Of a stretch of 64,000 bases of DNA, positions 19,901-59,350 are shown piece by piece. Every line of letters starts with the position of its first letter. Position 1 is the stretch's first letter. The stretch lies in NCBI GenBank assembly GCA_964551135.1, contig CAZKAT010000003.1, positions 1,514 through 65,513 on the forward strand. Direction: 5' to 3'. The DNA comes from an uncultured Gammaproteobacteria bacterium (lineage in GTDB: Bacteria; Cyanobacteriota; Vampirovibrionia; LMEP-6097). The notes beneath the pieces are model-generated. The model did no database searches, was not told the origin of the DNA, and worked only from the letters and a program-made list of their open reading frames with translations. Position numbers and translations under genes: made by a program.

Positions 19901-21197
19901 TTTGATTTCCAGAACTAGCCCTAGGATATAAATATGTACCTTGATTAACCCATTCACTAGCAGTCGTAAGTAATTGAAGGTTTTGCCAACTAGCTAAACC
20001 GCTAGCATTAGAAACTAATATAAATCCTGCTCTTTGACTTCCATCTTTGATTTGCAATGATCCATTAAAAATTGCATTACCTTGTACTAATCCATTATGA
20101 GTAAAACTAAAAGGACCATTCACCAGGGTTCGTCCATTTAAAAAAGCATTCTGCAGCTTTCCATTACTAGTAAATGATAAAAGAGCATTTATATTACCAC
20201 CATTAGCAATAGAACCAAGAGGACCTTGCGCACCTTGGGGACCTGGGATACCTTGTGCTCCTGAACCACCTGGAATTCCTGCTGGTCCCCTCGGACCAAT
20301 AGGTCCCTGGGGTCCCTGAGAGCCAAGTATTGACCGCGTTCCATTGCTAGTAAAATAAAAATTTACACCATCGTATTCTATAGCTCCATCTACGATATTA
20401 TTAGTTAAAAGTCCTGCCTCAAATTTAATACCAGGACTTTCTCCATCACCAGCTTTAGCAGTAAAATAAGCAGGCTCAGTAATATCGATAACATTACCAT
20501 TACCTTGACCTCCACCAGATCCTTTGGAACTAGTTGATTTGATATATTGAATTCCTTTTATTGAAATTGGTATGGTAACTTTATAAAATCCCGATCTAGA
20601 TTTTATGACACTAGTAGTAATTTGTTTTTGTGGTTTAGCTTCAAAAACCACGTTATCAAAAATATATTGCAACTGACAATCATTAAAATTATTCTGATTA
20701 CAATCTGCATTAGTAAAGGCTTTCAGGGTTTCATTATTTTGGCCTGATAAATTTATAGCAGAGATAGTAGTTTGATAAGTATTTATTAGATTCTTATTAC
20801 TGTTATAAACTTCAAACTGAAGCGTTTTAGAATTCTTAGTAAAATATCCAATATTTATATTTAGTGTTCTGATTTTAGTTTCAGGAGCAAAGGTTATATT
20901 TTGAGTATTGAGAAATGTTCTAATATTGTTATTGATTTCAAAACAATCTATTTTAAAACTACTATTATTGTTGTTATTACTTATATAAAGATCTGTTGAA
21001 TCTATTTTAATATTAATACTATGCGTCTCTTTAAGATTAAGTTCTTGATCTTGCTTAAGTAAATAAAATTTTAGATTTGGATCAGAACCACTTATGAAAT
21101 CTATTGCAATATATGGATCAGATACGGCATTAACATAGCAAAAATTAAGAAGAAGCAAAAATATAAAAATTCTTCTGGTTAATTTATATTTATTCAT
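16902..21197 (-). CDS. Large secreted collagen-like repeat protein (possible surface fibre/adhesin)
   Basis: 1431 aa; N-terminal signal-peptide-like segment; collagen G-X-Y run (GSQGPQGPIGPRGPAGIPGGSGAQGIPGPQGAQGP); two roughly 240-aa near-identical internal modules; recurrent motif NGS(I/L)LFSN...LYW(D/N)...RLG(V/I)GT; very T/N/G/S-rich. Confidence 0.7.
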   Translation of the reverse strand: MNKYKLTRRIFIFLLLLNFCYVNAVSDPYIAIDFISGSDPNLKFYLLKQDQELNLKETHSINIKIDSTDLYISNNNNNSSFKIDCFEINNNIRTFLNTQNITFAPETKIRTLNINIGYFTKNSKTLQFEVYNSNKNLINTYQTTISAINLSGQNNETLKAFTNADCNQNNFNDCQLQYIFDNVVFEAKPQKQITTSVIKSRSGFYKVTIPISIKGIQYIKSTSSKGSGGGQGNGNVIDITEPAYFTAKAGDGESPGIKFEAGLLTNNIVDGAIEYDGVNFYFTSNGTRSILGSQGPQGPIGPRGPAGIPGGSGAQGIPGPQGAQGPLGSIANGGNINALLSFTSNGKLQNAFLNGRTLVNGPFSFTHNGLVQGNAIFNGSLQIKDGSQRAGFILVSNASGLASWQNLQLLTTASEWVNQGTYLYPRASSGNQSAVIGGTTITGADIILNANGGAIFNEAANSVNFRVEGSSQTHLIFAQGSTNMVAIGDSSPAAQLDVGGGIATFINGVGDIIAADDLEVDDDAYIAGTVLATNFNGTAANLSGTITSNKVLSTTNINGTTANLTKVLSSGSVNGVNASFTNVIVSGIFNGTTTSFDGDFSNGSLLFSNAAGVISQNNSKLYWDRTNSRLGVGTSNADAMLTINGVLALFKTTVPSTMSNFGQVYVNSTNSRLYFKDDSGVVYSLTNGSASTVAGANTYFQFNDNNALGGNGALTFTKASKTLTVPADAPLDINSTTVSIADTNIAFDGASTTFTGTGAMTITPGAGTNLNVSLATTGDFAVNTNHLYVDTSATNVGIGTATPSSFKLQVAGSIGPDASALYDLGTNTTRFANAYINTVDLNFTNGSLLFSNVAGAISQNNSQVYWNSANNRMGIGTNTPASKLEVRGLLTTNGITMRDGATVGYVLTTDASGFAYWANVNVVNNGSDTSQGTIPGAIQFRGLTPGSFNADEVSFFWDDAFNRLGIGTNTPAYNLDVVGDLHVTKNGYFAQNVGIGTSLPSSFKLQVVGNIGPNGNALYDLGSNAIRFANAYVGTYTGTTANITTVNATTVGATTGNITTVNATTVGATTGNITTVNSTTINGANLDGNFTNGSILFSNNIGIISQNNSKLYWNRTANRLGVGTTNADALLTVNGITALYEVAAPGTAISNFGQIYVNTANSKLYFMDDGGTKYNLTNGSVSFVAAGANTNFQFNDSSALGGNGALSFTKASKTLTVAADAPLDINSTTVSIADPNISFDGASTIFTGTGAMTITPGAGTNLNVSLSTTGDFAVNTDQLYVDTSAVKIGINQSSPATALDVTGTINATAQINGVTANFTTGNITTVKATTINGANLDGNFTNGSILFSNTSGVLIEDQSSLYWDNVNKRLGVGTNIPQRTVHISDLMRLEPRSAAPSSPSLGDIYVDSDTNELCFFDGSSWVGLVAAGACI
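17080..17900. repeat. Internal direct repeat, copy 2, within the collagen-like gene (approximate bounds)
   Basis: Near-identical antisense ORFs at 17371..17622 and 18847..19098 (about 90% identical over 83 aa) show two copies of a roughly 0.8-kb segment spaced 1476 bp apart. Confidence 0.7.
17986..18075. repeat. Perfect 45-bp tandem repeat (2 full units plus partial flanking copies) inside the collagen-like gene
   Basis: Units 17986-18030 and 18031-18075 are identical (ccagtagtagctcccacggttgtagcattaacagtagttatatta); encodes repeated TTVNATTVGATTGNI; unit length is a multiple of 3. Confidence 0.8.
18560..19380. repeat. Internal direct repeat, copy 1, within the collagen-like gene (approximate bounds)
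   Basis: Same as copy 2; protein-level modules NGSLLFSNAAGVISQNNSKLYWDRTNSRLGVGT... and NGSILFSNNIGIISQNNSKLYWNRTANRLGVGT... Confidence 0.7.
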
Positions 21198-24209: not shown

Positions 24210-25925
24210 ATGACAAGAATTCCTCGAACAACTCCCGACAGATCATTTCGCCCTATAATTCCAGGACATTATCATAGTCGCAGTTATATTACTTCCACTG
24301 AGGATACTTTTCTAAATTATGATGATTACACTCCACGAATAAGACCTGTCGTTATTAGTCATGATTTTAAACCTCAACGAACAATTGAAATAAACAATGC
24401 TCAATCTAGACAAAAAATTAAGCATCAAATTTACAAAGCCTTAGTAAAGGAAAAGGTTAAAGACGATGCATTAATAGCAATATCTGAAGTTCACGGTGGC
24501 ACAAATAGCTCTCTTATTTACTCAGGTATCAAAGATCCTACAAAACCTGCCGAAACTTTACACTCTCTTCAATTTAAATTAAAGGGTGATCATCCTGAGC
24601 ACGATATTTCTATCGCCAGGGACATTATTGGACAAGTTGGACGCCAAGCTAAGAACTGTGGAGATCTATTTGGTGAACTCTGTGTTGCAAGCTGGCATAA
24701 AGGCGGTAAAGCAGATATTGCTAATGATGATGCTTCAGACTGGAAACACAAGCCAGGCTATTGGGCACATGTCAATCGTGCAATTGTTGATAGAGCTAAA
24801 GATTACGGTAAAAACGAACCATATAGTTTTGGAGAAGCTACTCAAAGTCGATTCGATGACCATTCATTAAACTTACATTCTAGTGTCACTAACGGTCCAG
24901 ATGGAACCCATCACTTATCAGCTAAAAATAAGCAAGGTATTGCTAGAAGGTATCACTCCAATATACAAAACGATGGTAGCTATGGACTCCAGTCATTTAG
25001 AGACTTATATGGAATACCAAAAGAAGAAACCATTGCAACTTTAATTTATGGTTCTGGTTATAACACCAATATCGGGCAGGGAAATATGATTGTTAATACC
25101 GAGAATGGACATATCACCAGGAAAACTTGTCCTGCATTACAGCAAGACTGGGATCAATATGGTCAATTTTTAGAACTGCAGAGAGTTGGTTCTAGCCAAG
25201 AGTTTGGTAATCTTGAAAGACATGAATTAATAGTCGCTGGAGGTAATACTGATAATCAATATGCTGGTCCTAAATTAGCAGCAAACAATATTATCAACTC
25301 AATTACTGAAGACTTAGCTCGTGATGGACAAGCTTCTGCAGTTACAAGTCAAATGTTGAAACTATTAGGGATTAGCTTTGAAGATGCTAAAGTAAGTGAT
25401 TTAATTGATATTAAACGAGAAAGAAATATTGACAATCCAGATATAGATAGAAGTATTCTTACTAATTACAATGACGGAACAGTGTCCCAGAAAGGCTTAC
25501 TGGCACTGAAAATATATGAAAACTTAGCTCATAGAGCTGGAACTATACTTGCTAAATTCTTCGATGACAGTCAAGTTAAGAAGGAACAAGAATTAACTAT
25601 TGATTTTAGAAAAGCAACTAAGATCGGTATCATTGGAAGCCAAGGCAAAGGAATGTATGATAGGAAAATGCCACCATCAATTCTAGGAAATTTCGTTAAT
25701 GCTCTCAATCAAGTTAGACCTAACAATCCATTATATGCAAACGATGTAATAATTCATGCACCGATACAAGACGGTGCCTATGCTGCAGCTCTAGCAAGAT
25801 TAGGAATTCAAATGCGATCATCTGACATTCAAGTTTCTAGCAACATAGATTCTGAAACTGAAGTTGCTAACACTATTAGAGGAGGAGGGTTTAGAGGTGT
25901 GAAGCATCTTGCACAAACTTCTTAA
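24210..25925 (+). CDS. Hypothetical protein (571 aa), no recognisable family
   Basis: Long ORF with a promoter-like element upstream; no motif recognised by eye. Confidence 0.45.
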   Translation: MTRIPRTTPDRSFRPIIPGHYHSRSYITSTEDTFLNYDDYTPRIRPVVISHDFKPQRTIEINNAQSRQKIKHQIYKALVKEKVKDDALIAISEVHGGTNSSLIYSGIKDPTKPAETLHSLQFKLKGDHPEHDISIARDIIGQVGRQAKNCGDLFGELCVASWHKGGKADIANDDASDWKHKPGYWAHVNRAIVDRAKDYGKNEPYSFGEATQSRFDDHSLNLHSSVTNGPDGTHHLSAKNKQGIARRYHSNIQNDGSYGLQSFRDLYGIPKEETIATLIYGSGYNTNIGQGNMIVNTENGHITRKTCPALQQDWDQYGQFLELQRVGSSQEFGNLERHELIVAGGNTDNQYAGPKLAANNIINSITEDLARDGQASAVTSQMLKLLGISFEDAKVSDLIDIKRERNIDNPDIDRSILTNYNDGTVSQKGLLALKIYENLAHRAGTILAKFFDDSQVKKEQELTIDFRKATKIGIIGSQGKGMYDRKMPPSILGNFVNALNQVRPNNPLYANDVIIHAPIQDGAYAAALARLGIQMRSSDIQVSSNIDSETEVANTIRGGGFRGVKHLAQTS

Positions 25926-44975: not shown

Positions 44976-47888
44976 GTGATAAAATCCACATTCGAAATGT
45001 TGATTAAACCACAATTAATTTTTCAAGCACCAGATAAGGATTTACCAGGCGTAAATCCTAAATCTGGTAATACCAATATTCCAAGTAATTCTTCTTTGCA
45101 ATTAAGACGTAATCTAGCAGCAACGTTATTAACTTATGAAGATACCAGACGTGCCAAATTTTTTGGAGCCATTAATGGAACTCCTCTGGAGTCTTATTTA
45201 CCTAAAGTAAAGTCTCCAATAGAAAAATTCCTGAAAACTAATCCCAGTGATAAATTAATTCAGGCTTGTGCTACAGATTTGCGTAATGGTAGTAGGGAAG
45301 AAGCTATATTAAAAGAAACATTGTCTATTTACGAATCTTTATCCAAAGCCAAGATAGATGATCGCTTTATACCTGTGTTTCAGTCTTTAGTCCGTGCAAA
45401 TGAAGACAATAAACAATATTCTAGACCTCAATTAGTAGAAGTAGTAATAGTTCCTCTATCAAGAATACAAAATTTTAGTGATAAATTACTAACCAAAGCT
45501 ACTAATGATTTAAGTTATTTAGTTGGTAAAAATGGACAAGATGAATCTAAGTTGGCTGAATATATAAAAGTAGCCCAAAATATAGCTGGATACAAACCTA
45601 CTGCTGACATTCGGAATCTTTACAACAATATCCTTAATGCTGTCTGTGCTACTAATGCAGAAGAGTTGAGATTAACAGCAGATTTAAATCGATTCTTCAA
45701 ACGACTTTCAAATTTATCGATATCCTATGATGTTCAAACTGAATTAGAGAAACAAATTCAATATACTGGTACTCAATTTGGATCAGTACCAAATAGCATA
45801 GATAAATATTTATTATCAGTTATAACTTCTTTTATAAACTTTAATGATCGCCTAACTATGTTTTCATCTGATCGTAGAACTCAAGTCGTAGCACATTACA
45901 ATGAATTAGTTCAAATTACAAAAGATTCTGGCATGCATTTGGATACTCTTAATGATTTATTTACAAGAGGAATAAAAGACGATTTTATAACTGAAGAACT
46001 GGATATTGCAAATTCACTTTATCGATCTTCTTTACATTCCACTAAAAGTGGTCTAGCTGATTTAATTGCATATAGAGGAGAGTCTGCTTTAGAGTTAAAA
46101 CGAAGCCTTCGTGACTTGTATCTTAAAGCAAATGACAAAGATAATGCAGTAGCTAAATCGCTGATCTCTAATTTCAACTCGCTTGCTTTATACTGTCCCA
46201 CTAATTGGGTGTCTGATCCTGGTTCATCTACTTTATATGAAGTACCCAACTTAAAACCTTTATTACCGATAGTTAAATGTTTCGACGCCTTAATCGATTC
46301 TAATAATTTCCGTAACAATACTGTTCATATTTTAACTGAAAGATTCAAAGATTCACTGGATGAAAGTCACTATCCATCAGATCTTGCTTATAACAAATTC
46401 GTTAGTGCTATCAAAGCAAAAGGTTATGATGCAGCTCAATTGAAGCGTCAATTAATATTGATTACTGCACATGATATTTTAATGCACAATATCTCTAACA
46501 CGGGAAAGGTACCAGATTGGAAATATTTTAGTGAAATATTCCATAATGGTGATCTTCCTTTTCGTCATGGTACTCCAGAATATGATCAATGCCTGAGAGA
46601 AAGCCAAATTATTATGAGAGCTAGTTTCAATGCTCACTATGGTTTTGGAGCTTTAGCAAACGATGCCAAAGGTTGGAAAGATTCCATCCTGGCAAGATTT
46701 GGAAGAGATGTTGCATTTCAAGAAGTACAGGCACCTCGTTGTAAAGATGGTAATGCTTTTCCTGGAATGGGTTATGTGATAACTGGTCTCAATGATGATT
46801 TTTTACGTATTCCTGATCCAGCAAGAGAGATGAATGGTGATGAGGCATATCAAGACTTTTTAGCAAATTATCCTTTCTTAGCTGCTGTTGCTGATGATAT
46901 AAGTTCTACTCAGTTTACATTTCTTAGGGGAATGGTGGTAATAACTAATACAAAAGATAAATATTGTTTGCCAGATCGTAATCATCAAATGATACCTTAC
47001 TCTCTCGTTATTTATAATGATCATTTTCATAATAATGGTTATGATATTGCTTTCTTAGTTCCTTCAAAAATACTTTTAGATAAAATGAAACCGACCTTAT
47101 TCTCTATCTATGATACAGATGCGCCTGCTACAATACCCCAAAATATTAATGATGTACCACTTGATATTGAGAGTCTTAGAAAAGAAGCTCATGACATGAA
47201 TGCAAGCATTCTTAGTTTAGGTTCATCATCTAATATTGCAGGCTTAAGTAATGCTTGGGAGCCTAATAGAAGACCATATTGGGCATGGGAAGCTGAAAAA
47301 AATCAAGATTGGCGAGACCTTGATGGACATAAACATAAATGGTTTGCGATGGCACGTCATGAACGGTTTTGGACCCCAGAGAATGAAGAAGAAATGAAAC
47401 CTTTTCAAAGAGTACATAAAGAAGTTTATGGAGTTGCAAAATCATTATTTGATAATTTAAATTCATTTAAATTATTTCTCTCAGCTTACAAGCATGGTTA
47501 TTTAGGTAATTTTGCTAGCAAAAAAAGTTCAGCTACAAGGGATGAATCAATAAGAACGTTTGCTAGTTCAGACAGTTTTCAAACCAGTTCTGACAACGAT
47601 ATGATGTTTGATCAAGCATATCTACTAAGGCAAGCAGCTTTAAAAAGAAAAGCCACAAATTTCCCTAAATTAGTTGTTTATGATACTTATAAATGGTCTT
47701 CCGAACCTATTGAAGGTTTTGAGCTTGATTTAGCTAATATGCAATTAACTTGGAATGGACAGACTCATCAATTAAATTTGGATAAACCAACAGCTACAGA
47801 TAGATCCTTATGGAGAAGAGTATTTAACCAATTTACAGGTTTGAATTATGATTTTAGATTTTATGAAAAGGGTTTAAATCAACATTAA
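44976..47888 (+). CDS. Large hypothetical protein (970 aa)
   Basis: Long uninterrupted ORF without recognisable motifs; no signal peptide apparent. Confidence 0.45.
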   Translation: MIKSTFEMLIKPQLIFQAPDKDLPGVNPKSGNTNIPSNSSLQLRRNLAATLLTYEDTRRAKFFGAINGTPLESYLPKVKSPIEKFLKTNPSDKLIQACATDLRNGSREEAILKETLSIYESLSKAKIDDRFIPVFQSLVRANEDNKQYSRPQLVEVVIVPLSRIQNFSDKLLTKATNDLSYLVGKNGQDESKLAEYIKVAQNIAGYKPTADIRNLYNNILNAVCATNAEELRLTADLNRFFKRLSNLSISYDVQTELEKQIQYTGTQFGSVPNSIDKYLLSVITSFINFNDRLTMFSSDRRTQVVAHYNELVQITKDSGMHLDTLNDLFTRGIKDDFITEELDIANSLYRSSLHSTKSGLADLIAYRGESALELKRSLRDLYLKANDKDNAVAKSLISNFNSLALYCPTNWVSDPGSSTLYEVPNLKPLLPIVKCFDALIDSNNFRNNTVHILTERFKDSLDESHYPSDLAYNKFVSAIKAKGYDAAQLKRQLILITAHDILMHNISNTGKVPDWKYFSEIFHNGDLPFRHGTPEYDQCLRESQIIMRASFNAHYGFGALANDAKGWKDSILARFGRDVAFQEVQAPRCKDGNAFPGMGYVITGLNDDFLRIPDPAREMNGDEAYQDFLANYPFLAAVADDISSTQFTFLRGMVVITNTKDKYCLPDRNHQMIPYSLVIYNDHFHNNGYDIAFLVPSKILLDKMKPTLFSIYDTDAPATIPQNINDVPLDIESLRKEAHDMNASILSLGSSSNIAGLSNAWEPNRRPYWAWEAEKNQDWRDLDGHKHKWFAMARHERFWTPENEEEMKPFQRVHKEVYGVAKSLFDNLNSFKLFLSAYKHGYLGNFASKKSSATRDESIRTFASSDSFQTSSDNDMMFDQAYLLRQAALKRKATNFPKLVVYDTYKWSSEPIEGFELDLANMQLTWNGQTHQLNLDKPTATDRSLWRRVFNQFTGLNYDFRFYEKGLNQH

Positions 47889-48271: not shown

Positions 48272-49432
48272 TTAGTTAAAAATATACCAATCAATTATTT
48301 TCCACACATCTTGATTACCAAGCTCTGATGCCATCTCTAATCTAGATTGTGCCGCTGTCTTGCCAACACAGTAAATGCCTGCTTGACTAAGATTTCCTAT
48401 CATTTCGACAAGATGTTCTTGAGCTAATTTGTCTCCTGGAAATAGCTTTGGCATATAAGCATGAACCATATTTTGTAAAATAGCATTGAAAGTAAATAGA
48501 GTTGGCCAAGTGATCATTTCTGCTCTAGTTCTATCTCTGAGCTTTCCTAAGTCATCAGGATTAATTCCTTTCTTAAGTTCTCCGGCAATTACATCTCTTA
48601 AAATATATGCTGAACCAACTATCCCTCCTAAAGCTTTTCCTGAACTAGCATTCAGCTTTAAACCTAACGCAAAACTCAATCCAAAAATCAATAAATCAAT
48701 TGCTGATCTTTTCAAATTGAGTTCTTTTGTAGAAATTTTCTCAATACCCTCATTAGCTTTTTCAAGATCTTTTTTTCTTTCACAAAGATTTTTTACTAAT
48801 ATAGTTAAAGGAATATTTCTCGGGTCGTTTCTATATTCATCTGGATACTTATTTAATTCTGCTTTTACAACGTCACGAAGTTCACTAAGGATAGGATTTC
48901 TGAGATATTTAACTTCTCCAATAATAGTATAGTAACTAAGCATGCTGGCAAATCTAGATTGCATTTGCACAGAATCTGTAAATGATGCAGCAAGAAAATT
49001 AGCAGGATATCTTGCAAGCAGGGCACCTAACTGTATAATCAAACCAGCCCAGGGCCTGCAATAAGCATCAGCATTATCATAACGAAGTGCATCTTCAGAA
49101 CTATGAGGATCTTCTGCATGCTTAACAAAATTATTAGCAATTAAAACTTTCGCTTCATAAAATTCAGCTCCAATAGCAGGCAATGATGAACTAAGGGTGG
49201 GATTAACACAATGCATTACATGATTAACTAATGGAGCTTTTGTTTTTTTATTAGTCTTTTGTGCTAATGCTTTATTAGTTAGCTCTTCAGCATTAGATTG
49301 ATTTTTTTGCTCAGGTTGTTTTTTAATTTCATTTGTTGCATGACCACTAACCGTAAGCAAACCTAGGGGCAAAACTTTTAAAAAATTTCTTCTACTTATT
49401 GGGTGAACCAGCACTGGGCAAAATAATATCAC
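48272..49432 (-). CDS. Hypothetical protein with twin-arginine (Tat) signal
   Basis: 386 aa; N-terminal ISRRNFLKVLPLGLLTVSGHA matches the Tat consensus (S/T-R-R-x-F-L-K plus hydrophobic region and AxA-like site); GTG start. Confidence 0.5.
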   Translation of the reverse strand: MILFCPVLVHPISRRNFLKVLPLGLLTVSGHATNEIKKQPEQKNQSNAEELTNKALAQKTNKKTKAPLVNHVMHCVNPTLSSSLPAIGAEFYEAKVLIANNFVKHAEDPHSSEDALRYDNADAYCRPWAGLIIQLGALLARYPANFLAASFTDSVQMQSRFASMLSYYTIIGEVKYLRNPILSELRDVVKAELNKYPDEYRNDPRNIPLTILVKNLCERKKDLEKANEGIEKISTKELNLKRSAIDLLIFGLSFALGLKLNASSGKALGGIVGSAYILRDVIAGELKKGINPDDLGKLRDRTRAEMITWPTLFTFNAILQNMVHAYMPKLFPGDKLAQEHLVEMIGNLSQAGIYCVGKTAAQSRLEMASELGNQDVWKIIDWYIFN

Positions 49433-50848: not shown

Positions 50849-51913
50849 ATGCCAAAACTAGAATTGAAACCTAGGACATATATAATTCTAGCTATCATCA
50901 TAGCTTTAATAATTGTCGTGCATTTGTATTTAGCAGTATGGGTGAAACATTATGTCAATAAAAAGATGGCAGATTTAAACGGATATAGTGGTTCAATAGA
51001 AAAAATTGAAATACATCTATGGCGAGGAGCTTATAAAATTGACGGTCTGAATATTTATAAAGAACTGGGTGGACTGAAAAAGCCTTTTTTCTCCACAGAA
51101 ACTATGGATATCTCTGTTGATTGGCGTGCACTGTTGAAGGGTGCCATAGTTGCAGAGATTACGTTTAATAAGCCTAAAATTAATTTCGCTAAAACCCAGA
51201 CGGGAGAAAACGCTGGATGGGGTGATTTTATTGACTCACTTGCTCCTTTTGAAATCAACCGTCTAAATGTAAAAAAAGGGAAATTATCCTATATCGATTA
51301 TTCAGCTGAACCAGATGTAAATCTATTTATTGACAATGTTAACGCACAGGTCACTAATCTTAATAACATTGATCATAAGAGTAATGCCCTTCCTTCAACT
51401 CTTAGGGTAACTGGTAAATCTATTGGCAATGGTAATTTAACAGTAAATGGAAGTATGAATATTTTGACTGATATACCAAGTTTTGATCTTGATTTAAAAC
51501 TTACCAAAGCCAAATTAACTGCATTCAATGATTTTATACATGATGCAGCTGGCATAACTTTTGAAGAAGGGAATATAGGAATCTTCTGTGAACTAGCTTC
51601 TACTAAAGGAGAAGTGAAAGGCTATGTTAAGCCTATTCTTACCCATGTTCGCATAATAGATATTAAAAAGGATAAAAATCCATTTAACCTAATCTGGGAA
51701 TCACTTGTATCAGTATTTATGGAAGCCTTCAAAAATCAGCATAAGGACCAATTCGCTATGCGTATACCAATAGAGGGTAAACTAGAAAATCCAAAAGAAG
51801 ATTCATGGAGAGGCTTCTTGAGCATTTTCAGTAATGCTTTTAAACATGCCTTCAAAAGAAATGTAGACGGAACTATAAGCTACAAGGATATACTTGTAGA
51901 AGCCAGAACCTGA
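50849..51913 (+). CDS. DUF748/AsmA-like membrane-anchored protein
   Basis: 354 aa; single N-terminal TM helix (YIILAIIIALIIVVHLYLAVW) followed by a beta-rich region resembling DUF748/AsmA-family proteins. Confidence 0.4.
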   Translation: MPKLELKPRTYIILAIIIALIIVVHLYLAVWVKHYVNKKMADLNGYSGSIEKIEIHLWRGAYKIDGLNIYKELGGLKKPFFSTETMDISVDWRALLKGAIVAEITFNKPKINFAKTQTGENAGWGDFIDSLAPFEINRLNVKKGKLSYIDYSAEPDVNLFIDNVNAQVTNLNNIDHKSNALPSTLRVTGKSIGNGNLTVNGSMNILTDIPSFDLDLKLTKAKLTAFNDFIHDAAGITFEEGNIGIFCELASTKGEVKGYVKPILTHVRIIDIKKDKNPFNLIWESLVSVFMEAFKNQHKDQFAMRIPIEGKLENPKEDSWRGFLSIFSNAFKHAFKRNVDGTISYKDILVEART

Positions 51914-51939
51914 ATACCTGATAAAATTTATAATGCTCG

Positions 51940-53257
51940 ATGTTTGAACTATGGTTAAAGCGTATATTTTTCTCTAAGATAGACATCTCTATTATTGCTT
52001 ATTTCAGAATTGTTTTTGGACTCTGCATGTTAATCAATAGTATCCAGCTCTTTACTGAAGATTACATTGAATATTACTGGTTGAGACCACGTTTTCATTT
52101 TCATTACCTAGGTCTAGAATGGATACATGCTCTACCAGGTAAGGGCATGTATATTCTATGCTTTATTATTAGTCTGAGTTCTTTGTTTATAATGCTTGGA
52201 TTCTTCTATCGATTAAGTATTATAGTTTTTTTCTTCAGTTGGACTTATACATGGTTAATCGGTCAGAGTACTTATAACAATCATTATTACCTTATTTCCC
52301 TTCTTAGTTTTCTAATGATTTTCATTGCAGCTAATGGAAAGTATGCATTAGATGACATGATATTCCCAAATATCCAAACAGACGAACTAGCGTCCTGGAC
52401 TTTATTTATACTGCGTTTCCAGATTGCGATTCCTTATATCTATGGAGGTATCGCTAAACTTAATGAAGATTGGTTTCATGGTGAACCAGTAAGAACATGG
52501 TTAACAAACACAGGAGGATTTGTTGATCAAGAATGGTTTGTATATTTTGTTTCATATGGAGGACTGATCTTTGACTTGACTATTATTCCTTTACTTATTT
52601 GGCAAAGAACAAGGTTGCTAGCATTTATCGCAGTTATTGGCTTTCATCTTAGTAATCACTTCGCGTTTTCAGATATCAGTATTGGAATATTTCCATGGTT
52701 GATGATTGCAGCGACTGCCTTGTTTTTTGAGCCTAGTCAATTCTCCAAATTATTTATGAGGATTAAGCATGTTAAGTAAAATAGAAAAACTAATTTCCTT
52801 ACTCTTAATTTTGTTCATTTTGATACAGATCATTGTTCCTTTTCGATATTTATATTACCCAGGACCTTCTGCCTGGAATGAAGAAGCACATAAATTTATT
52901 TGGCATATGAAACTCGCACACAAGAAGGCTTACGCTCAATTTATCGTATTCAGCCCAAGTCTGAACAAATCATATAAAGTTGATACAAGAAAATTTCTTA
53001 CTAGCTGGCAATATGAAGTGATGGTATCCAATCCCAGATTGATACTACAGTTTGCTCACTATTTAAGAGACTTATATAAAGAACGGGGCATCAATGACAT
53101 AGTAATTAAAGTTGAAGCCAAAACTTCACTCAATAATAGACCGCTACAATATCTCGTAGACCCTAATGTAGATTTAGCCAAGAAAGAAAACACTTTAAAG
53201 CATTTTGATTGGATTATGCCGTTAAATGTTAAGGTAGTACCTAAACATTCATTATAA
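51940..53257 (+). CDS. HTTM-domain (vitamin K-dependent gamma-carboxylase-like) membrane protein, apparently split by a +1 frameshift into ORFs 51940..52779 and 52769..53257
   Basis: First ORF carries HTTM hallmarks (AYFRIVFG, PRFHFHYLGLEW, LGFFYRLS, NNHYYL); second ORF (overlapping by 11 nt in another frame) begins ...PFRYLYYPGPSAWNEEAHKFIWHMKL, which reads like the continuation of the same domain. Confidence 0.5.
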
Positions 53258-53289: not shown

Positions 53290-53478
53290 ATGTCCCTCAG
53301 GTATCATTCAAATACAAGTGCTAGATTAAACTCTTTTATTCAAACAAGAAATAAAACACTAAAACTAATCGAAAACTTAAATGAAGAAGATGCTTACATT
53401 CAGTCCATGCCAGATGTAAGTCACATTAAGAGTGGAATAGCTCTAATTCTTATAGTTTTATTTTTCTGTTCAATTTAA
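53290..53478 (+). pseudogene. Remnant of an egtB-like N-terminus (truncated paralogous fragment)
   Basis: SFIQTRNKTLKLIENLNEEDAYIQSMPDVS aligns with LFIQVRNKTLDLVRDLNEEDTCLQSMTDAS at the N-terminus of the egtB gene at 53867, then diverges and terminates. Confidence 0.5.
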
Positions 53479-53866: not shown

Positions 53867-55201
53867 ATGCATTTAATCAATCCACAAACTCCTAAAATAA
53901 ATTCAACTAGTACAAATACTATATTAAATCTATTTATTCAAGTAAGGAATAAAACTTTAGATTTAGTTAGAGATTTAAATGAAGAAGATACTTGCTTACA
54001 ATCAATGACAGATGCAAGTCCCACTAAATGGCACCTAGCACATAGCTCGTGGTTCTTTGAAACTTTCTTACTTAAAAAATTTAAAACTAATTACAAAGAG
54101 TTTAATCCTGATTTTAATTTTCTATTTAACTCTTACTACAACTCTATAGGTAGAAACCGCTTCCCGCGTTCAAAACGAGGCTTAATCTCAAAACCAACTC
54201 TCCAAGAAGTTATAAATTATAGAAAACATATTGATAATAGCATCATAGAATTAATGGAGAAAGGTCTTCTAGAATCCAAAGCAAACACTGTGCATGAGAT
54301 TATTAGCATATTAACCTTAGGAATTCATCATGAACAACAACATCAAGAACTAATCATTACTGATATTAAGCATGTTCTATCGAAGAATCCGCTGAAGCCT
54401 ATTTTCTCAGACTATACACGTAAAATAATTTTAGGTAGCAAATCTACAATTAGCAAAAAGTCTGAATATATATACCAGCCAGGCGGCATAGTCGAAATTG
54501 GTTATCGAGACGGGGACTCTACTACTGATTTTTGTTTTGATAATGAAATACCAAGCCATCCAGTCTATCTTGAACCATGTTTGATTAGCTCTCAATTAGT
54601 TACTAATAGTGAGTTTCAAGAATTTATGGAAGATGATGCTTATAATCGTCCTGAATTATGGCTAGCAGATGGTTTTGATTTTATTAAAGCTAATAATATT
54701 CATTGTCCACTATATTGGTTTAAAGAAGATAGTAAATGGCAAATCTTTACACTTGGTGGCGTATTCAAACTGAATCCTAAGGAACCAGTTGTACATGTCA
54801 GTTTCTATGAAGCAGAAGCCTTTGCTAGATGGCGTAAAGCAAGGTTAGTGCGTGAAGCAGAATGGGAATCTTTTGCAGAAGAACCATTTAGTAAGAGAAA
54901 TATACTAACTAGTAATTTCCAAGAAAATAATATTTTCCATCCTCTCGCTACTAACGAGTTACAAGTATATGGCAACCTATGGCAATGGACCATGAGTGCA
55001 TATAGTCCATATCCAGGTTATAAAGAACTACCAGGGGCGCTAGGAGAATATAACGGTAAATTTATGATCAATCAAATGGTACTCAAAGGTGGTTCCTGTG
55101 CGACTCCTAGATCACATATTAGATCAAGCTATCGCAATTTTTTCTATCCTCAGCAAAGATGGCAATTTATGGGGATTAGACTTGCCCAAGATGTTTCATA
55201 A
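53867..55201 (+). CDS. egtB: Ergothioneine biosynthesis sulfoxide synthase EgtB-like (DinB_2 plus FGE-sulfatase domains)
   Basis: 444 aa; N-terminal DinB-like metal site (HLAHSSWFFETF, GIHHEQQHQEL) and C-terminal FGE-like domain (GNLWQWTMSAY...KGGSCATP...RWQFMGIRLA). Confidence 0.75.
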   Translation: MHLINPQTPKINSTSTNTILNLFIQVRNKTLDLVRDLNEEDTCLQSMTDASPTKWHLAHSSWFFETFLLKKFKTNYKEFNPDFNFLFNSYYNSIGRNRFPRSKRGLISKPTLQEVINYRKHIDNSIIELMEKGLLESKANTVHEIISILTLGIHHEQQHQELIITDIKHVLSKNPLKPIFSDYTRKIILGSKSTISKKSEYIYQPGGIVEIGYRDGDSTTDFCFDNEIPSHPVYLEPCLISSQLVTNSEFQEFMEDDAYNRPELWLADGFDFIKANNIHCPLYWFKEDSKWQIFTLGGVFKLNPKEPVVHVSFYEAEAFARWRKARLVREAEWESFAEEPFSKRNILTSNFQENNIFHPLATNELQVYGNLWQWTMSAYSPYPGYKELPGALGEYNGKFMINQMVLKGGSCATPRSHIRSSYRNFFYPQQRWQFMGIRLAQDVS

Positions 55202-55212
55202 AGGAGAAAGAT

Positions 55213-56184
55213 ATGAGAAATACAATGACAATGATGAAGACTTACTTAGAACCTAACTTAGCTATTTGCAATGAAATTTATAACAGTTTAAGCCAAGTTA
55301 ATAAATCTCTTTCAAGTAAATTTTTCTATGATGAATATGGTTCAAAACTTTTTGAAGATATATGTGAACTTGATGAGTACTATGTGACCAGAGCTGAGAT
55401 GGAAATTATGGAAAAACAACTATCAGTGTTTGCAAACCTAGCAAAGAAAAAACTATTAGTGATTGAATTAGGTAGTGGTAACACTACTAAAATACGACAC
55501 TTATTGGACAATTTTCCCAATATTCAAACCTATCTCCCCATTGATATTTCAGGAGATTACCTCAAAATCCAAACAGAGAAATTAGCTAATAACTATATAA
55601 ATCTTAATATTCAAATGCTAGCAGCTGACTACACGCATCCTTTTGTTTTACCTAGATTAGAAAATAATTTCGAAGAGATTTTAATTTATTATCCAGGTTC
55701 TTCTATTGGTAATTTTGAACCAATGCAAGCTAGGGTAATCTTACAAAGAATCATTACTTTAATTAAAGAGAGCTATACCTCTTTACCAGTGAAGATGTTA
55801 ATTGGAGTTGACTTGATTAAGGACTCGCAGATTCTTAATCAAGCCTATAATGATTCAAAAGGCATTACTGCTAAATTTAATTTAAATCTTCTTAATAACT
55901 TAAATAATATAGCTGCAACTGATTTCGATTTAAATAAATGGGCACACTTTGCTTATTATAATAATCTACAGAAACGCATTGAAATGCATTTAATTAGCCT
56001 TCATCAACAAACAATCAAAATTGATAATAGAGAGATCTCTATACTGCCTGGTGAAAACATTCGCACTGAATATTCTTACAAATATACAATTGAAGATTTC
56101 TCACAATTATTCGAACCAGTATTTAAACTCGAAAAATGCTTAACCGATGCGAATAATTATTTTGGATTGTTCTTATTCTCCTAA
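55213..56184 (+). CDS. egtD: L-histidine N-alpha-methyltransferase EgtD-like
   Basis: 323 aa; EYYVTRAEMEIM and LVIELGSGNTTKIRHLL motifs typical of EgtD-type SAM methyltransferases; 11 nt downstream of egtB. Confidence 0.75.
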   Translation: MRNTMTMMKTYLEPNLAICNEIYNSLSQVNKSLSSKFFYDEYGSKLFEDICELDEYYVTRAEMEIMEKQLSVFANLAKKKLLVIELGSGNTTKIRHLLDNFPNIQTYLPIDISGDYLKIQTEKLANNYINLNIQMLAADYTHPFVLPRLENNFEEILIYYPGSSIGNFEPMQARVILQRIITLIKESYTSLPVKMLIGVDLIKDSQILNQAYNDSKGITAKFNLNLLNNLNNIAATDFDLNKWAHFAYYNNLQKRIEMHLISLHQQTIKIDNREISILPGENIRTEYSYKYTIEDFSQLFEPVFKLEKCLTDANNYFGLFLFS

Positions 56185-56290
56185 AAACATATTGGGTGAT
56201 AGCTCTAGGACTTTAACTAAAAATTCTTAGATCCAAGGAAATTATGATCTTTAGCTTCAACTATATGCTTATAAGCATTGTGCAATAAAG

Positions 56291-57067
56291 TCATTGAAGT
56301 TTTAGCCGAACTAGAAACTGCCTAGCTAATATACCTCCTTCAAACTTGAATCTATTTTTTTGTTCTTCTTGTCTTTTCTTTTCTAAATGATCAAAATGCT
56401 CCTCATCAGCTTTTCTTCTTTCTCTCATCTTGCTGGGTTTTGAACCTCTACTAATTATTCCTTGAATCTCATTTTTCATTTTTGCTTTTCCATTTTCATC
56501 ATCTGGATTAAGATTTAAAGCACGCTTAGCTAAATCAGCAAGCACTGTTACATTAGAATCATTCTCTAAAGTATCTGGATTAAGTGTATAAGGAATTTCA
56601 CCTTTGATAGCTTCTGGAGGATAATCTGGGGTTCTATAACCTAAAGCGGCTTTTAAAGATTCTATTTGTGCTTCATCCAGTACTCTACTTCTAATTAATA
56701 CTCCTATTTCATTCTGAGCTTGGTTTAAATCTTGAATTACTATGTTAGTTAAAATACTGATGATGATAGTCTCTCTACCTTCTTTCTTGGCTCTTAATTT
56801 TTCATGCTCTTGTTCAGCTGGGATGATTTCATTAATTTGCTTTAAAAGCCAATCTCTGTCAGCTTGATTAATTTCATGCATTGCAAATGCCTTATTAACA
56901 AGTTTAGTATTAGCTTCATCAATAACAGGCTTAGCTAATTCTTCAGGACTAACTTTTACTTTAGTCGTCACAGGATTTGGTTTAGCAACTTCTTTAGTGC
57001 AACCTAAAGCTAAAACTGGCATTAATGCCATAGAAGTAATAGTTCTCAAATTATTGCCTAGAAACAC
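56291..57067 (-). CDS. Hypothetical lipoprotein
   Basis: 258 aa; signal with lipobox LALGC (likely start at internal M, MALMPVLALGC); charged, helical C-terminal half. Confidence 0.45.
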   Translation of the reverse strand: MFLGNNLRTITSMALMPVLALGCTKEVAKPNPVTTKVKVSPEELAKPVIDEANTKLVNKAFAMHEINQADRDWLLKQINEIIPAEQEHEKLRAKKEGRETIIISILTNIVIQDLNQAQNEIGVLIRSRVLDEAQIESLKAALGYRTPDYPPEAIKGEIPYTLNPDTLENDSNVTVLADLAKRALNLNPDDENGKAKMKNEIQGIISRGSKPSKMRERRKADEEHFDHLEKKRQEEQKNRFKFEGGILARQFLVRLKLQ

Positions 57068-57091
57068 AATTCACAATAATACTACATATGC

Positions 57092-58213
57092 TTAGTATGG
57101 CGCAACTACATATTCTGCATAAAGTACTAGCTTTCCAGCAGTAAGCGCTTCACCAGCCACTACCATTGTGATATTGCGGCTTGCGGTAGTCTTCTCGGAG
57201 ATATTAGTTACTAAGCCATTCTGAATAGTACTATGTGCACCCAACGCCCATGGAGTAGTACCGTCAGAGATAGCAATAGGAGCCAAAATACCATTAGCAT
57301 CATCAGTTGGAATACTGAAAGATATAGTGGAAGCACCAGATGCAGAAGTGAGAGCCGTGAGAACCTCATACCAAGCACGAGTGACACGCGCTTTATTTGG
57401 CAGAGTAGCATTACGTAGAGTAATACTACCTACAGTACCACCATCGGTAGCAAAACTATATTCACCACGTAAAGTTCCAGCTATAAATCCAGCACTTGGC
57501 AAAGTGATACTTACAGCACCATTACCACTATTCAGTAACATTCTGTTAGTACCAGCTACAGAGAGTGTTGTATTGCCATTACTAATACTTGCAGCTTGTA
57601 TCTTACCAGCACCTGTAGAAATCACATGACTGTTCCATGACAATGCACCATTATATGAGCTAAGTACAATACCATTCATGGTAATTTTTTTAGGCACTAA
57701 GGTACCAGTATTGTCTACAACTTTTTTACTATTCCAAAGTAAATTACCATTAGCATCTCCTGATAAAGGAGTATCTTGGAAAACAACACTACCAGTTGTA
57801 ACAGTTGTCACATTAAGCTCGTCATCTGGTGGATCAGGATCAGGAGAACTTAAATCAGGTGTATTAAAAATCACTAAAGGAAAATCTTGAGGCTCTTCTT
57901 CTTTTACATCTCCACCAGTTACTCTCAGAATAAGAGTTTTGGTAGAAGTAACTGTAGGTGCTGTAAATTTAAATTTAGTAGGAGCAAGAGTTAATTCCAG
58001 GTCTTCTCCAAATTGTTCAGCATTGCCATCTATTAAGATTGCTCTGACAGGATTAGCAGCAGAAGTAAACTTCAGACCAGTTGCTATAACAGTGTTGCCT
58101 TCAAAAACAAAACTTGAAGAAAGTTTATTGACCTTAGCATTAACTAGTCCCATGCTAGTGATAAGTAGTAAAAACAAAAATAAACGCAGCATATTTCCAA
58201 TATACCATGACAT
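57092..58213 (-). CDS. Secreted Thr/Ser/Gly/Asn-rich hypothetical protein (beta-rich surface protein candidate)
   Basis: 373 aa; N-terminal signal-peptide-like LRLFLFLLLITSMGLVNA; low-complexity T/S/G/N-rich body. Confidence 0.45.
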   Translation of the reverse strand: MSWYIGNMLRLFLFLLLITSMGLVNAKVNKLSSSFVFEGNTVIATGLKFTSAANPVRAILIDGNAEQFGEDLELTLAPTKFKFTAPTVTSTKTLILRVTGGDVKEEEPQDFPLVIFNTPDLSSPDPDPPDDELNVTTVTTGSVVFQDTPLSGDANGNLLWNSKKVVDNTGTLVPKKITMNGIVLSSYNGALSWNSHVISTGAGKIQAASISNGNTTLSVAGTNRMLLNSGNGAVSITLPSAGFIAGTLRGEYSFATDGGTVGSITLRNATLPNKARVTRAWYEVLTALTSASGASTISFSIPTDDANGILAPIAISDGTTPWALGAHSTIQNGLVTNISEKTTASRNITMVVAGEALTAGKLVLYAEYVVAPY

Positions 58214-58237
58214 ATATTTTTAGGATATGTCAGCATC

Positions 58238-59350
58238 TTAGTGCCACATTTTTTGCAACGCCTCTCCGGCCTTATTCAGTGCTTCATTAACCGCCTGCGT
58301 TGCAACTTGTCCCACAGCTCCCACTAAATCAGGACGAATTTGTGGTTTATCAGTACGTCCTGTGATTTTAAGAGGAATGGTACCGCCAGGTAGTACTTGA
58401 CCAACTTTAAGGGGAACAATTCTATCAAGTCCATGGACAAATATACTTAAGTCCATATTATTGTCAAACCCAATAGAGCCTTGTCCTGTTGCCGAAAGTA
58501 ATTTATTGGAGAGTGATAAATTAGAAAGGTAAACTTTCTGATCACGAATGGAGAAGTTACTACTTAGCTTATCAAAATTATCACCTTGCTCTACTTCGCT
58601 TGACTCAGAAGATACTTTCAAACTATCAATTATAGGTTTTATTAAATTAATAAATTTAAATTCTCCTTGATATAAATTAAAACTTCCTTGACCAGTAATA
58701 TTGGTTAAAGGATCAATCTTGTCACTAGCGCTAAAACTGAGTTCAAATTTAGGGACTTCTACCTCTGCTCTAATCTGGTCAGTATCAGCATTTAAGCACG
58801 CTAATGTTTTGTTCAATGCTCCACGTGATAAAGCTCCATGCAATTGCACTATAGAAACTTCTGTCTTCATATCAGTATCCACTACACCATTTGCATGCAA
58901 ATTACTATTACCTAATGTCAATAAAGCATTACTAATAATGATATGTGGATTCTTTTGTTTTTCAGGAATATAAGGGACACATATAAAATCCAAACCACCA
59001 CTGCAACCAGAGATCGCTCGATGCCCTAGATAGATCTTCTCAGCAGCAGCATGACCATCTAAACAATAATTAGGTTGATAAGTATTTTTAGCGATTCTAG
59101 TAATCTCAATATTCTCAAGATTGATAGTTGCTTCTCCTTCGCCTACCGCTAAAAGCTTCAGAGTTATTTTCCTCTGCTCTTTGCTGAATGATTTAGCTAA
59201 ATTAAAGTTCGCACCTCGAACTTTAATTGGCATTTTAAAATCTTTTGTCAATTGGTATGAAATGATTTGATCTTTTACATAAAAGAAAAATACCAAAATC
59301 AATATGGCAACAATTAATATTGCAATCAAAGCTGTAGTCTTCTTATTCAT
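58238..59350 (-). CDS. AsmA-family-like membrane-anchored protein
   Basis: 370 aa; N-terminal TM anchor (ALIAILIVAILILVFFFY); C-terminal region (GTIPLKITGRTDKPQIRPDL) resembles the conserved AsmA C-terminus. Confidence 0.45.
   Translation of the reverse strand: MNKKTTALIAILIVAILILVFFFYVKDQIISYQLTKDFKMPIKVRGANFNLAKSFSKEQRKITLKLLAVGEGEATINLENIEITRIAKNTYQPNYCLDGHAAAEKIYLGHRAISGCSGGLDFICVPYIPEKQKNPHIIISNALLTLGNSNLHANGVVDTDMKTEVSIVQLHGALSRGALNKTLACLNADTDQIRAEVEVPKFELSFSASDKIDPLTNITGQGSFNLYQGEFKFINLIKPIIDSLKVSSESSEVEQGDNFDKLSSNFSIRDQKVYLSNLSLSNKLLSATGQGSIGFDNNMDLSIFVHGLDRIVPLKVGQVLPGGTIPLKITGRTDKPQIRPDLVGAVGQVATQAVNEALNKAGEALQKMWH

Follow-up and report, generated by a model that had tools for sequence, protein, structure and literature searches.

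The stretch of DNA considered here (the window; 64,000 nucleotides (nt) of contig CAZKAT010000003.1 from an uncultured Gammaproteobacteria bacterium) carries on its minus strand three closely spaced genes, in the following referred to as g1, g2 and g3. We consider it probable that these are three evolutionarily independent exported-protein genes which came to lie side by side between dps and egtD, and that they do not encode a dedicated machine. The initial annotation had proposed a co-functioning envelope module, with g2 and g3 as cargo or accessory components of the AsmA-like protein g1, and conservation of the gene neighbourhood, besides co-transcription, had been set beforehand as a test of this idea. 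This half of the test failed and the module is not supported, as g3 is an orphan, the adjacency of g1 and g2 is confined to three close genomes and the distant relatives of both stand alone.

The gene calls themselves were confirmed, whereby the intergenic gaps g1/g2 and g2/g3 amount to 24 nt each when the starts are taken as first called:

58238..59350, minus strand: g1, 370 amino acids (aa)
57092..58213, minus strand: g2, 373 aa
56291..57067, minus strand: g3, 258 aa from a GTG start

With a codon model trained on the Pfam-confirmed genes of the same window, g1, g2 and g3 score +0.22, +0.35 and +0.37 bits per codon in frame and negative in the other frames, hence all three, the orphan g3 included, look like native coding sequence. 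From the spacing alone co-transcription of the three genes is plausible and, if it takes place, would be incidental. Promoter and terminator consensus scans stayed at background level at the locus and are uninformative as to operon structure, and no Rfam family was found there. That the three products are exported or envelope proteins, as initially annotated, is broadly right.

Neighbourhood conservation of g1, g2 and g3

In the window species and in the genomes represented by loci L013 and L009/L014 (75-82% identity), g1 and g2 are direct neighbours with a common orientation and a distance of 19-54 nt. All three genomes have mt-dps upstream, and the window species and L013 furthermore have egtD/egtB downstream. 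As these close genomes share their flanking backbone, the adjacency of g1 and g2 is inherited context which carries no independent weight. Further relatives of g1 (L019, L020 and L021 with 74, 43 and 41% identity) have neither g2 nor g3 within their available flanks, and g2-type genes (L010 67%, L016 53%, L011 52%, L017 45%, L005 44% and L003 43%) have neither g1 nor g3 beside them. The unknown neighbours of two distant g2 genes (377 aa in L005, 186 aa in L003) were considered as divergent forms of g1 and rejected. In GCA_013565675.1, a g1-type gene (74%) and a g2-type gene (67%) are both present, on separate contigs and in unrelated surroundings.

Between g2 and egtD (56185-57091 of the window) the close relatives possess a variable slot. 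It holds g3 in the window, a methyltransferase, a Fic-like protein and a SIMPL protein in L013 (7126-9845), and a 63-aa open reading frame (ORF), a DcsG_N protein, a SIMPL protein and several unknowns in L009 (7120-12600). The dps-egtD segment would accordingly be one where close relatives keep g1 and g2, variation being confined to the stretch downstream of g2. Current models are left unchanged by these results, and a three-gene machine is unsupported.

The truncated AsmA-like protein g1 and the orphan g3

Two parts of g1 could be delimited:

59264..59332, minus strand: N-terminal transmembrane helix of g1, residues ~7-29, ALIAILIVAILILVFFFYV, from sequence and model
58241..59077, minus strand: AsmA-homologous region of g1, residues 92-370, from hhalign, including the LPGGTIPLKITGRTDKPQIRPD motif and the terminal helix

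Curated models do not recognise g1. No Pfam hit to AsmA, AsmA_2, YhdP or DUF748 was obtained at E<=0.1, the NCBIfam AsmA model gave a sub-threshold match (14.5 bits versus a cut-off of 412, E 0.009, residues 168-334), Pfam JHBP was likewise sub-threshold with 15 bits, and a PDB sequence search with the g1 profile returned no match. A word-indexed protein search with g1 returned nine proteins, each at least 74% identical, and for the metagenome scan a 7-sequence alignment served as query. An exhaustive profile search against 1.84 billion cluster representatives yielded 189 proteins, eight of which are full-length relatives (307-381 aa, E<1e-30), so that the g1 family is a small one. The other matches comprise 450-1100 aa and align with their C-terminal ends to g1 residues ~140-365, and in all 14 long matches that were sampled Pfam AsmA, YhdP or DUF748 was found at significant scores. 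Upon comparison of the g1 family alignment (A3) with an alignment of seven AsmA-positive proteins (A5), hhalign returned a probability of 99.6% and an E-value of 5.7e-25 for g1 residues 92-370, which on the AsmA side correspond to the last ~270 of ~690 columns and include the IP-x-x-I-x-G-x-x-x-x-P motif and the terminal helix.

Homology of g1 to bona fide AsmA proteins is hence documented by profile search and hhalign alike, and based on both we describe g1, as far as sequence comparison goes, as a truncated AsmA-like protein which consists of an anchor, a family-specific segment and the distal AsmA region only. The initial annotation of g1 as an AsmA-family-like membrane-anchored protein thus stands with respect to the anchor and to residues ~92-370, i.e., the C-terminal three-quarters of the protein, and has to be amended in that the N-terminal two-thirds of a usual AsmA protein are missing. 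Like AsmA, YhdP, TamB and YdbH of E. coli (Pfam AsmA, YhdP, DUF748), g1 possesses a single N-terminal anchor, its residues ~7-29 forming a hydrophobic helix, and the C-terminal ~270 residues of AsmA-like proteins align to g1 residues 92-370 with a G-x-IP-I/L-x-I-x-G-x-x-x-x-P motif and the terminal helix. Unlike AsmA-like proteins, which comprise 550-1260 aa, g1 measures 370 aa and lacks both the AsmA/chorein-N-like N-terminal region and the central regions which complete the long continuous groove. In their place a segment of ~60 residues is found (residues 30-91), which precedes the AsmA-homologous region, is specific to the family and matches nothing.

The AlphaFold2 (AF2) model of g1, built from nine aligned sequences, is unreliable, its mean predicted local distance difference test score (pLDDT) amounting to 40; it shows mainly beta structure and a helix at the C-terminus, and the helical residues 3-30 are the sole part reaching pLDDT 72-80. 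Foldseek with this model gave nothing at E<0.06, the top matches CETP and BPI with probabilities of at most 0.05 being unusable. From the homology, g1 would adopt a beta-groove fold with a hydrophobic interior. Four cysteines are conserved in the g1 family (Cys96, Cys116, Cys124 and Cys185), three of them inside the AsmA-homologous region and one assigned to the ~60-residue segment, and because of these cysteines and the AsmA family precedent g1 is suggested to be anchored in the inner membrane with the remainder located in the periplasm. For YdbH (869 aa) a reach of ~180 Å of the ~250 Å periplasm was predicted (PMC11126948), and scaled from the length and reach of YdbH, the ~340 periplasmic residues of g1 would be far too short to span the periplasm alone.

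It is the terminal portion of an AsmA-type groove, together with the ~60-residue segment, that would be exposed to the periplasm while tethered by one N-terminal helix, and most likely g1 would bind or hand over lipid or another hydrophobic cargo at the envelope. Should the short g1 family prove functional, a membrane anchor and the C-terminal portion of an AsmA-type groove would suffice for an independently working unit, and such a unit would bear on the distal-end docking of bridge-like lipid transporters. The rare truncated AsmA-like architecture is considered mildly new.

For g3, the feature of relevance is its leader:

56999..57067, minus strand: putative lipoprotein signal and lipobox of g3, MFLGNNLRTITSMALMPVLALG-C23, read from sequence

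This leader ends in ...PVLALGC, whereby LALG-C23 with an arginine upstream fits, by eye, a permissive PROSITE-type lipobox ([LVI][ASTVI][GAS]C-like). This holds for a start at GTG 57067 or TTG 57049 only. Other gene callers start g3 at ATG 57031, which results in a protein of 246 aa, a gap of 60 nt to g2 and an 11-residue leader devoid of positive charge. Lipoprotein status of g3 is consequently plausible and dependent on the start codon. The charged C-terminus described in the initial annotation was found as such (44% K/R/E/D within the last 63 residues) and is probably helical, and the designation as lipoprotein is possible with the GTG or TTG start. Protein searches with g3 retrieved the identical sequence only, from identical contigs; no match was obtained in the PDB, in plasmids or in phages, and Pfam and NCBIfam gave noise only, with neither the YnbE nor the YdbL family at E<=0.1. 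As g3 is also absent from the two closest syntenic relatives, L013 and L009, it is probably a species-specific accessory lipoprotein or secreted protein which was inserted into the variable slot after g2.

The secreted protein g2 and its phage-type jellyroll

Our reading of g2 is a tentative one. It may represent an undescribed Sec-exported family of low-GC, probably host-associated gammaproteobacteria, in which a phage cement or decoration jellyroll was exapted as the distal knob of an adhesin or lectin. The following parts were identified:

58136..58213, minus strand: signal peptide of g2, residues 1-26, ending ...SMGLVNA and followed by KV
57869..58096, minus strand: N-terminal immunoglobulin-like (Ig-like) beta-sandwich of g2, residues ~40-115, AF2 pLDDT ~80
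57809..57859, minus strand: Pro/Asp-rich linker of g2, PDLSSPDPDPPDDE, 17 residues, pLDDT below 40
57095..57493, minus strand: C-terminal jellyroll of g2, residues 241-373, eight strands, pLDDT 84-96

Approximately 19 full-length orthologues of g2 were found (41-100% identity), which reside in low-GC metagenome-assembled genomes (MAGs) labelled uncultured Gammaproteobacteria. All 13 full-length orthologues that were aligned keep the hydrophobic leader and an AxA-type site. Since homologues begin at the equivalent position, the start of g2 is more likely the second ATG at 58195 (MLRLFLF...), which would widen the gap between g1 and g2 to 42 nt. The initial annotation had described g2 as a signal-peptide-bearing, low-complexity protein rich in T, S, G and N. 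The signal peptide and the enrichment (T+S+G+N = 36.7%) hold true; low complexity does not, as g2 is a folded multi-domain beta protein in which entropy drops under 2.2 bits nowhere but in the signal peptide and the PDLSSPDPDPPDDE linker, the latter thereby being the sole internal low-complexity stretch.

The AF2 model of g2 (mean pLDDT 71 from a 24-sequence alignment) comprises the Ig-like sandwich, the disordered linker, a beta-rich middle and the eight-stranded jellyroll. The middle contains a duplicated NG-x-L-x-WNS motif and is poorly resolved. Among the orthologues, mean identity is 68% for the jellyroll, 69% for the linker and 46-54% for the other two folded regions. Weak Foldseek matches relate the Ig-like domain to Ig, filamin and CopC domains, and Pfam searches with g2 at E<=0.1 identified neither the YnbE nor the YdbL family. 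Near one g2 orthologue, a collagen-repeat protein (L010, 1888-3036, minus strand) weakly matches the Ig-like domain of g2 (24% over 91 aa, E 0.002), and such a domain may be common to secreted proteins of this clade. That g2 is an outer-membrane beta-barrel was rejected, a conserved C-terminal aromatic residue being missing, and so was a function as intracellular anti-phage decoy, against which the signal peptide speaks.

The jellyroll revealed the relationship of g2 to phage cement proteins. Foldseek against the PDB identified KHP30 as best match (7dn2_1, E 6.5e-5, TMt 0.68), followed by the cement proteins of Pam1 (7eel_H, E 2.1e-4) and GP4 (8h89_J, E 2.5e-3), so that the cement fold is matched with TMt 0.57-0.68 by a query of pLDDT 84-96. 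Further matches were a baseplate protein of a siphophage and, less strongly, the jellyroll of the lectin Bc2L-C, and 66 viral models of BFVD matched at E<1e-3. Compared with the phage cement proteins BPP-1 Bbp16, KHP30, Pam1 and GP4 (PMC9698820), the C-terminal 133 residues of g2 have the same fold and a matching domain size (~126-157 aa), whereas g2 is chromosomal, has a signal peptide and carries ~240 extra N-terminal residues. Solved cement proteins of the jellyroll fold were reported to form trimers at the quasi-threefold sites of the capsid (PMC9698820). The likeness to TNF-like or jellyroll lectins, exemplified by the N-terminal domain of Burkholderia Bc2L-C, is weaker (Foldseek E ~1e-2, probability 0.92-0.99). 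Bc2L-C provides a precedent for a bacterial trimeric glycan-binding jellyroll, whereby it has no sequence similarity to g2 and serves as an analogy only.

On the level of sequence, the C-terminal domain of g2 passes neither Pfam Bbp16 nor Phage_cement_2, residues 288-362 giving a weak match to Bbp16, the cement protein of BPP-1 (13.5 bits versus a cut-off of 27.1), as the sole hint from Pfam. The g2 profile found no match among PDB sequences, the solved cement proteins included, and tblastn of the domain against GenBank phages found none either. In the absence of a GenBank phage match, the viral link of the domain rests on IMG/VR contigs and on the fold. Within IMG/VR, at least 216 viral loci match g2 residues ~249-372 only, and viral matches rarely begin before residue ~250 and never before residue 184. 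The identity between the g2 domain and domains in viral contigs reaches 52%. In 78 viral ORFs (128-938 aa, median 188) the domain always ends 0-9 residues from the stop. Distant homologues share the C-terminal domain only, their N-termini belonging to head-decoration, scaffold-like or virion-structural families; in one of them, P0028, PF09956 was identified, located within the N-terminal part. Often the domain-bearing ORF directly follows the major head gene, as it does in L055, L094 and L089, and in L070 two short ORFs lie between them, whereas g2 itself has cellular neighbours. None of the ~10 cellular g2 loci has phage genes flanking g2. Annotation of a Deltaproteobacteria MAG locus (L018) with PHROGs was largely uninformative. 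When 81 distinct domain sequences were placed in a neighbour-joining tree, a rough method, the 13 cellular orthologues came out as a single clade whose sister is viral, which is consistent with a single capture of the g2 domain from phages.

Considering this, a model can be suggested in which g2 is exported by Sec and folds into an Ig-like domain, a flexible Pro/Asp linker, a beta-rich stalk and the jellyroll as knob. The knob would have been captured once from the phage pool, where it forms the C-terminal or sole domain of small head-associated cement or decoration proteins. Most likely, g2 would act as an oligomeric surface or secreted binding module of adhesin- or lectin-like character, and it would work without g1, because most orthologues have no g1 nearby. 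The g2 family would then be a clean example of a phage structural domain which was captured once by bacteria and given an export signal, and if the reading is true, a capsid-binding fold was repurposed for cell-surface or host binding. A bacterial secreted family ending in an unnamed, widespread jellyroll of phage head-associated proteins is considered mildly new as well.

As to the phages themselves, a frequent C-terminal domain without a name came to light in their head-associated proteins (at least 216 viral contigs), and curated libraries so far leave it uncovered. This viral domain of ~125 aa (loci L022-L101) possesses RAWYEV and EALTAGK motifs, and no Pfam family covers it. Examples of the respective ORFs are:

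L055, 7815-8351: viral domain ORF
L094, 7854-8369: viral domain ORF
L089, 7956-8342: viral domain ORF

From PHROGs, phrog_673 alone, and only partly, extends into the domain. The phage-type homologues P0024-P0026 consist of a hydrophobic N-terminal segment, a phrog_673 ('head scaffolding protein') region and a g2-type C-terminal domain. Furthermore, phrog_20969 ('Rz-like spanin') weakly matches the g2-type C-terminal domain in other proteins, and because the match falls on this very domain, the spanin annotation looks doubtful.

Alternative explanations and further genes of the window

Several points weigh against the locus being a chance assembly of independent genes and against the roles suggested for its products. 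The g1-g2 pair with its short gap is present in all three closest genomes, which makes a lineage-restricted functional link conceivable, and all three products are envelope-bound, as those of a module would be. Since the contigs of the relatives are in many cases short and metagenomic, a partner gene may lie elsewhere in the respective genome. With respect to the single proteins, the model of g1 reaches a pLDDT of 40 and has no significant Foldseek match, for the middle of g2 the model is poor as well (pLDDT 50-58), and it is from the architecture of g2 that its binding or adhesin role was deduced. A functional link could take the form of a young, genus-level pair of g1 and g2, g3 being no part of it, in which g1 would help to export, anchor or lipid-load g2. 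Adjacency, common strand and short distance in the window species, L013 and L009/L014 argue for such a pair; however, the adjacency was inherited together with the shared backbone (mt-dps, and egtD/egtB in the window and L013), and in GCA_013565675.1 the two genes lie on separate contigs. To our knowledge there is no precedent for a pair of an AsmA-like protein and a secreted jellyroll protein, and we regard this explanation as unlikely.

A more elaborate alternative derives from ydbH-ynbE-ydbL of E. coli, for which it was reported that a small lipoprotein prolongs the AsmA-like protein up to the outer membrane and that a periplasmic protein modulates it, YnbE and YdbL being the sole experimentally established accessory pair of an AsmA-like protein (PMC11126948). 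Accordingly, g1 would be extended to the outer membrane by g3, g2 or both by means of beta-strand augmentation, thus forming a trans-envelope bridge. The gene content is analogous to that of ydbH-ynbE-ydbL (AsmA-like protein, outer-membrane lipoprotein and periplasmic protein; PMC11126948), as neighbouring genes specify an inner-membrane-anchored AsmA-like protein, a lipoprotein and a protein with a signal peptide, a likeness of product categories only. Moreover, the genes are closely spaced, g1 would not span the periplasm by itself, and it keeps exactly that C-terminal AsmA region which in YdbH contacts YnbE. However, neither g3 and YnbE nor g2 and YdbL are related in sequence, and g2 and g3 find no Pfam match to either partner even at E<=0.1. 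Sizes differ greatly, YnbE being a very small lipoprotein and g3 comprising 258 aa, and so does the gene order. The co-location known from E. coli is not reproduced either, given that the g1-g2 neighbourhood is limited to three close genomes and g3 to one, that g3 is absent from the closest relatives, that the relatives of g1 at 74, 43 and 41% identity occur without g2 and g3, and that most g2 orthologues occur without g1. Finally, what is conserved in g2 is a jellyroll of the phage capsid type instead of a domain that would extend a groove. A bridge of the YdbH-YnbE-YdbL type is hence highly unlikely, and the more radical variant that truncated g1 reaches the outer membrane through a non-canonical extension, provided by g2 or g3, is judged less likely than the adhesin or lectin reading of g2. 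Still more improbable, to a degree that we give it hardly any credence, is that g2 belongs to a prophage remnant and still acts as capsid cement or decoration protein instead of serving the cell. This would be in line with the cement fold and with the up to 52% identity to domains in viral contigs. Against it speak the ~10 cellular loci devoid of flanking phage genes, the cleavable signal peptide in 13 of 13 orthologues, which would divert g2 from cytoplasmic capsid assembly, the monophyly and native codon usage of the cellular orthologues, and the extra N-terminal architecture of ~240 residues that is found in no viral homologue.

A second AsmA-clan gene, which the initial annotation had pointed out nearby, is genuine:

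50849..51913, plus strand: short DUF748 (AsmA-clan) gene, Pfam PF05359, 102.2 bits versus a cut-off of 50

It is not part of the g1-g3 cluster. No paralogy between g1 and the encoded protein could be detected, as hhalign against the g1 family aligned the transmembrane region only, with a probability of 4%. Immediately after the DUF748 gene come an HTTM gene and a VKGC-lumenal-like (vitamin K-dependent carboxylase-like) gene (50849-53257, plus strand), an arrangement kept in identical contigs, and this set is a more interesting candidate for an AsmA-clan partnership than g1-g3. Downstream thereof, a 62-aa ORF (53290-53478, plus strand) is a duplicate of an N-terminal part of EgtB, being 53% identical to residues 14-58 of that protein. 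The intact egtB-egtD pair (53867-56184) follows after ~390 nt, and the short ORF probably represents the remnant of a pseudogene. Four large ORFs have no Pfam hit at E<=1e-5 (16902-21197, 1431 aa; 44976-47888, 970 aa; 24210-25925, 571 aa; 48272-49432, 386 aa) and are located among the housekeeping genes mutS, topA, gatB and aroKB. Past the end of the window, the source contig encodes collagen-repeat and leucine-rich repeat (LRR) proteins. Together with the four large ORFs, they suggest a host-associated, effector-rich genome.

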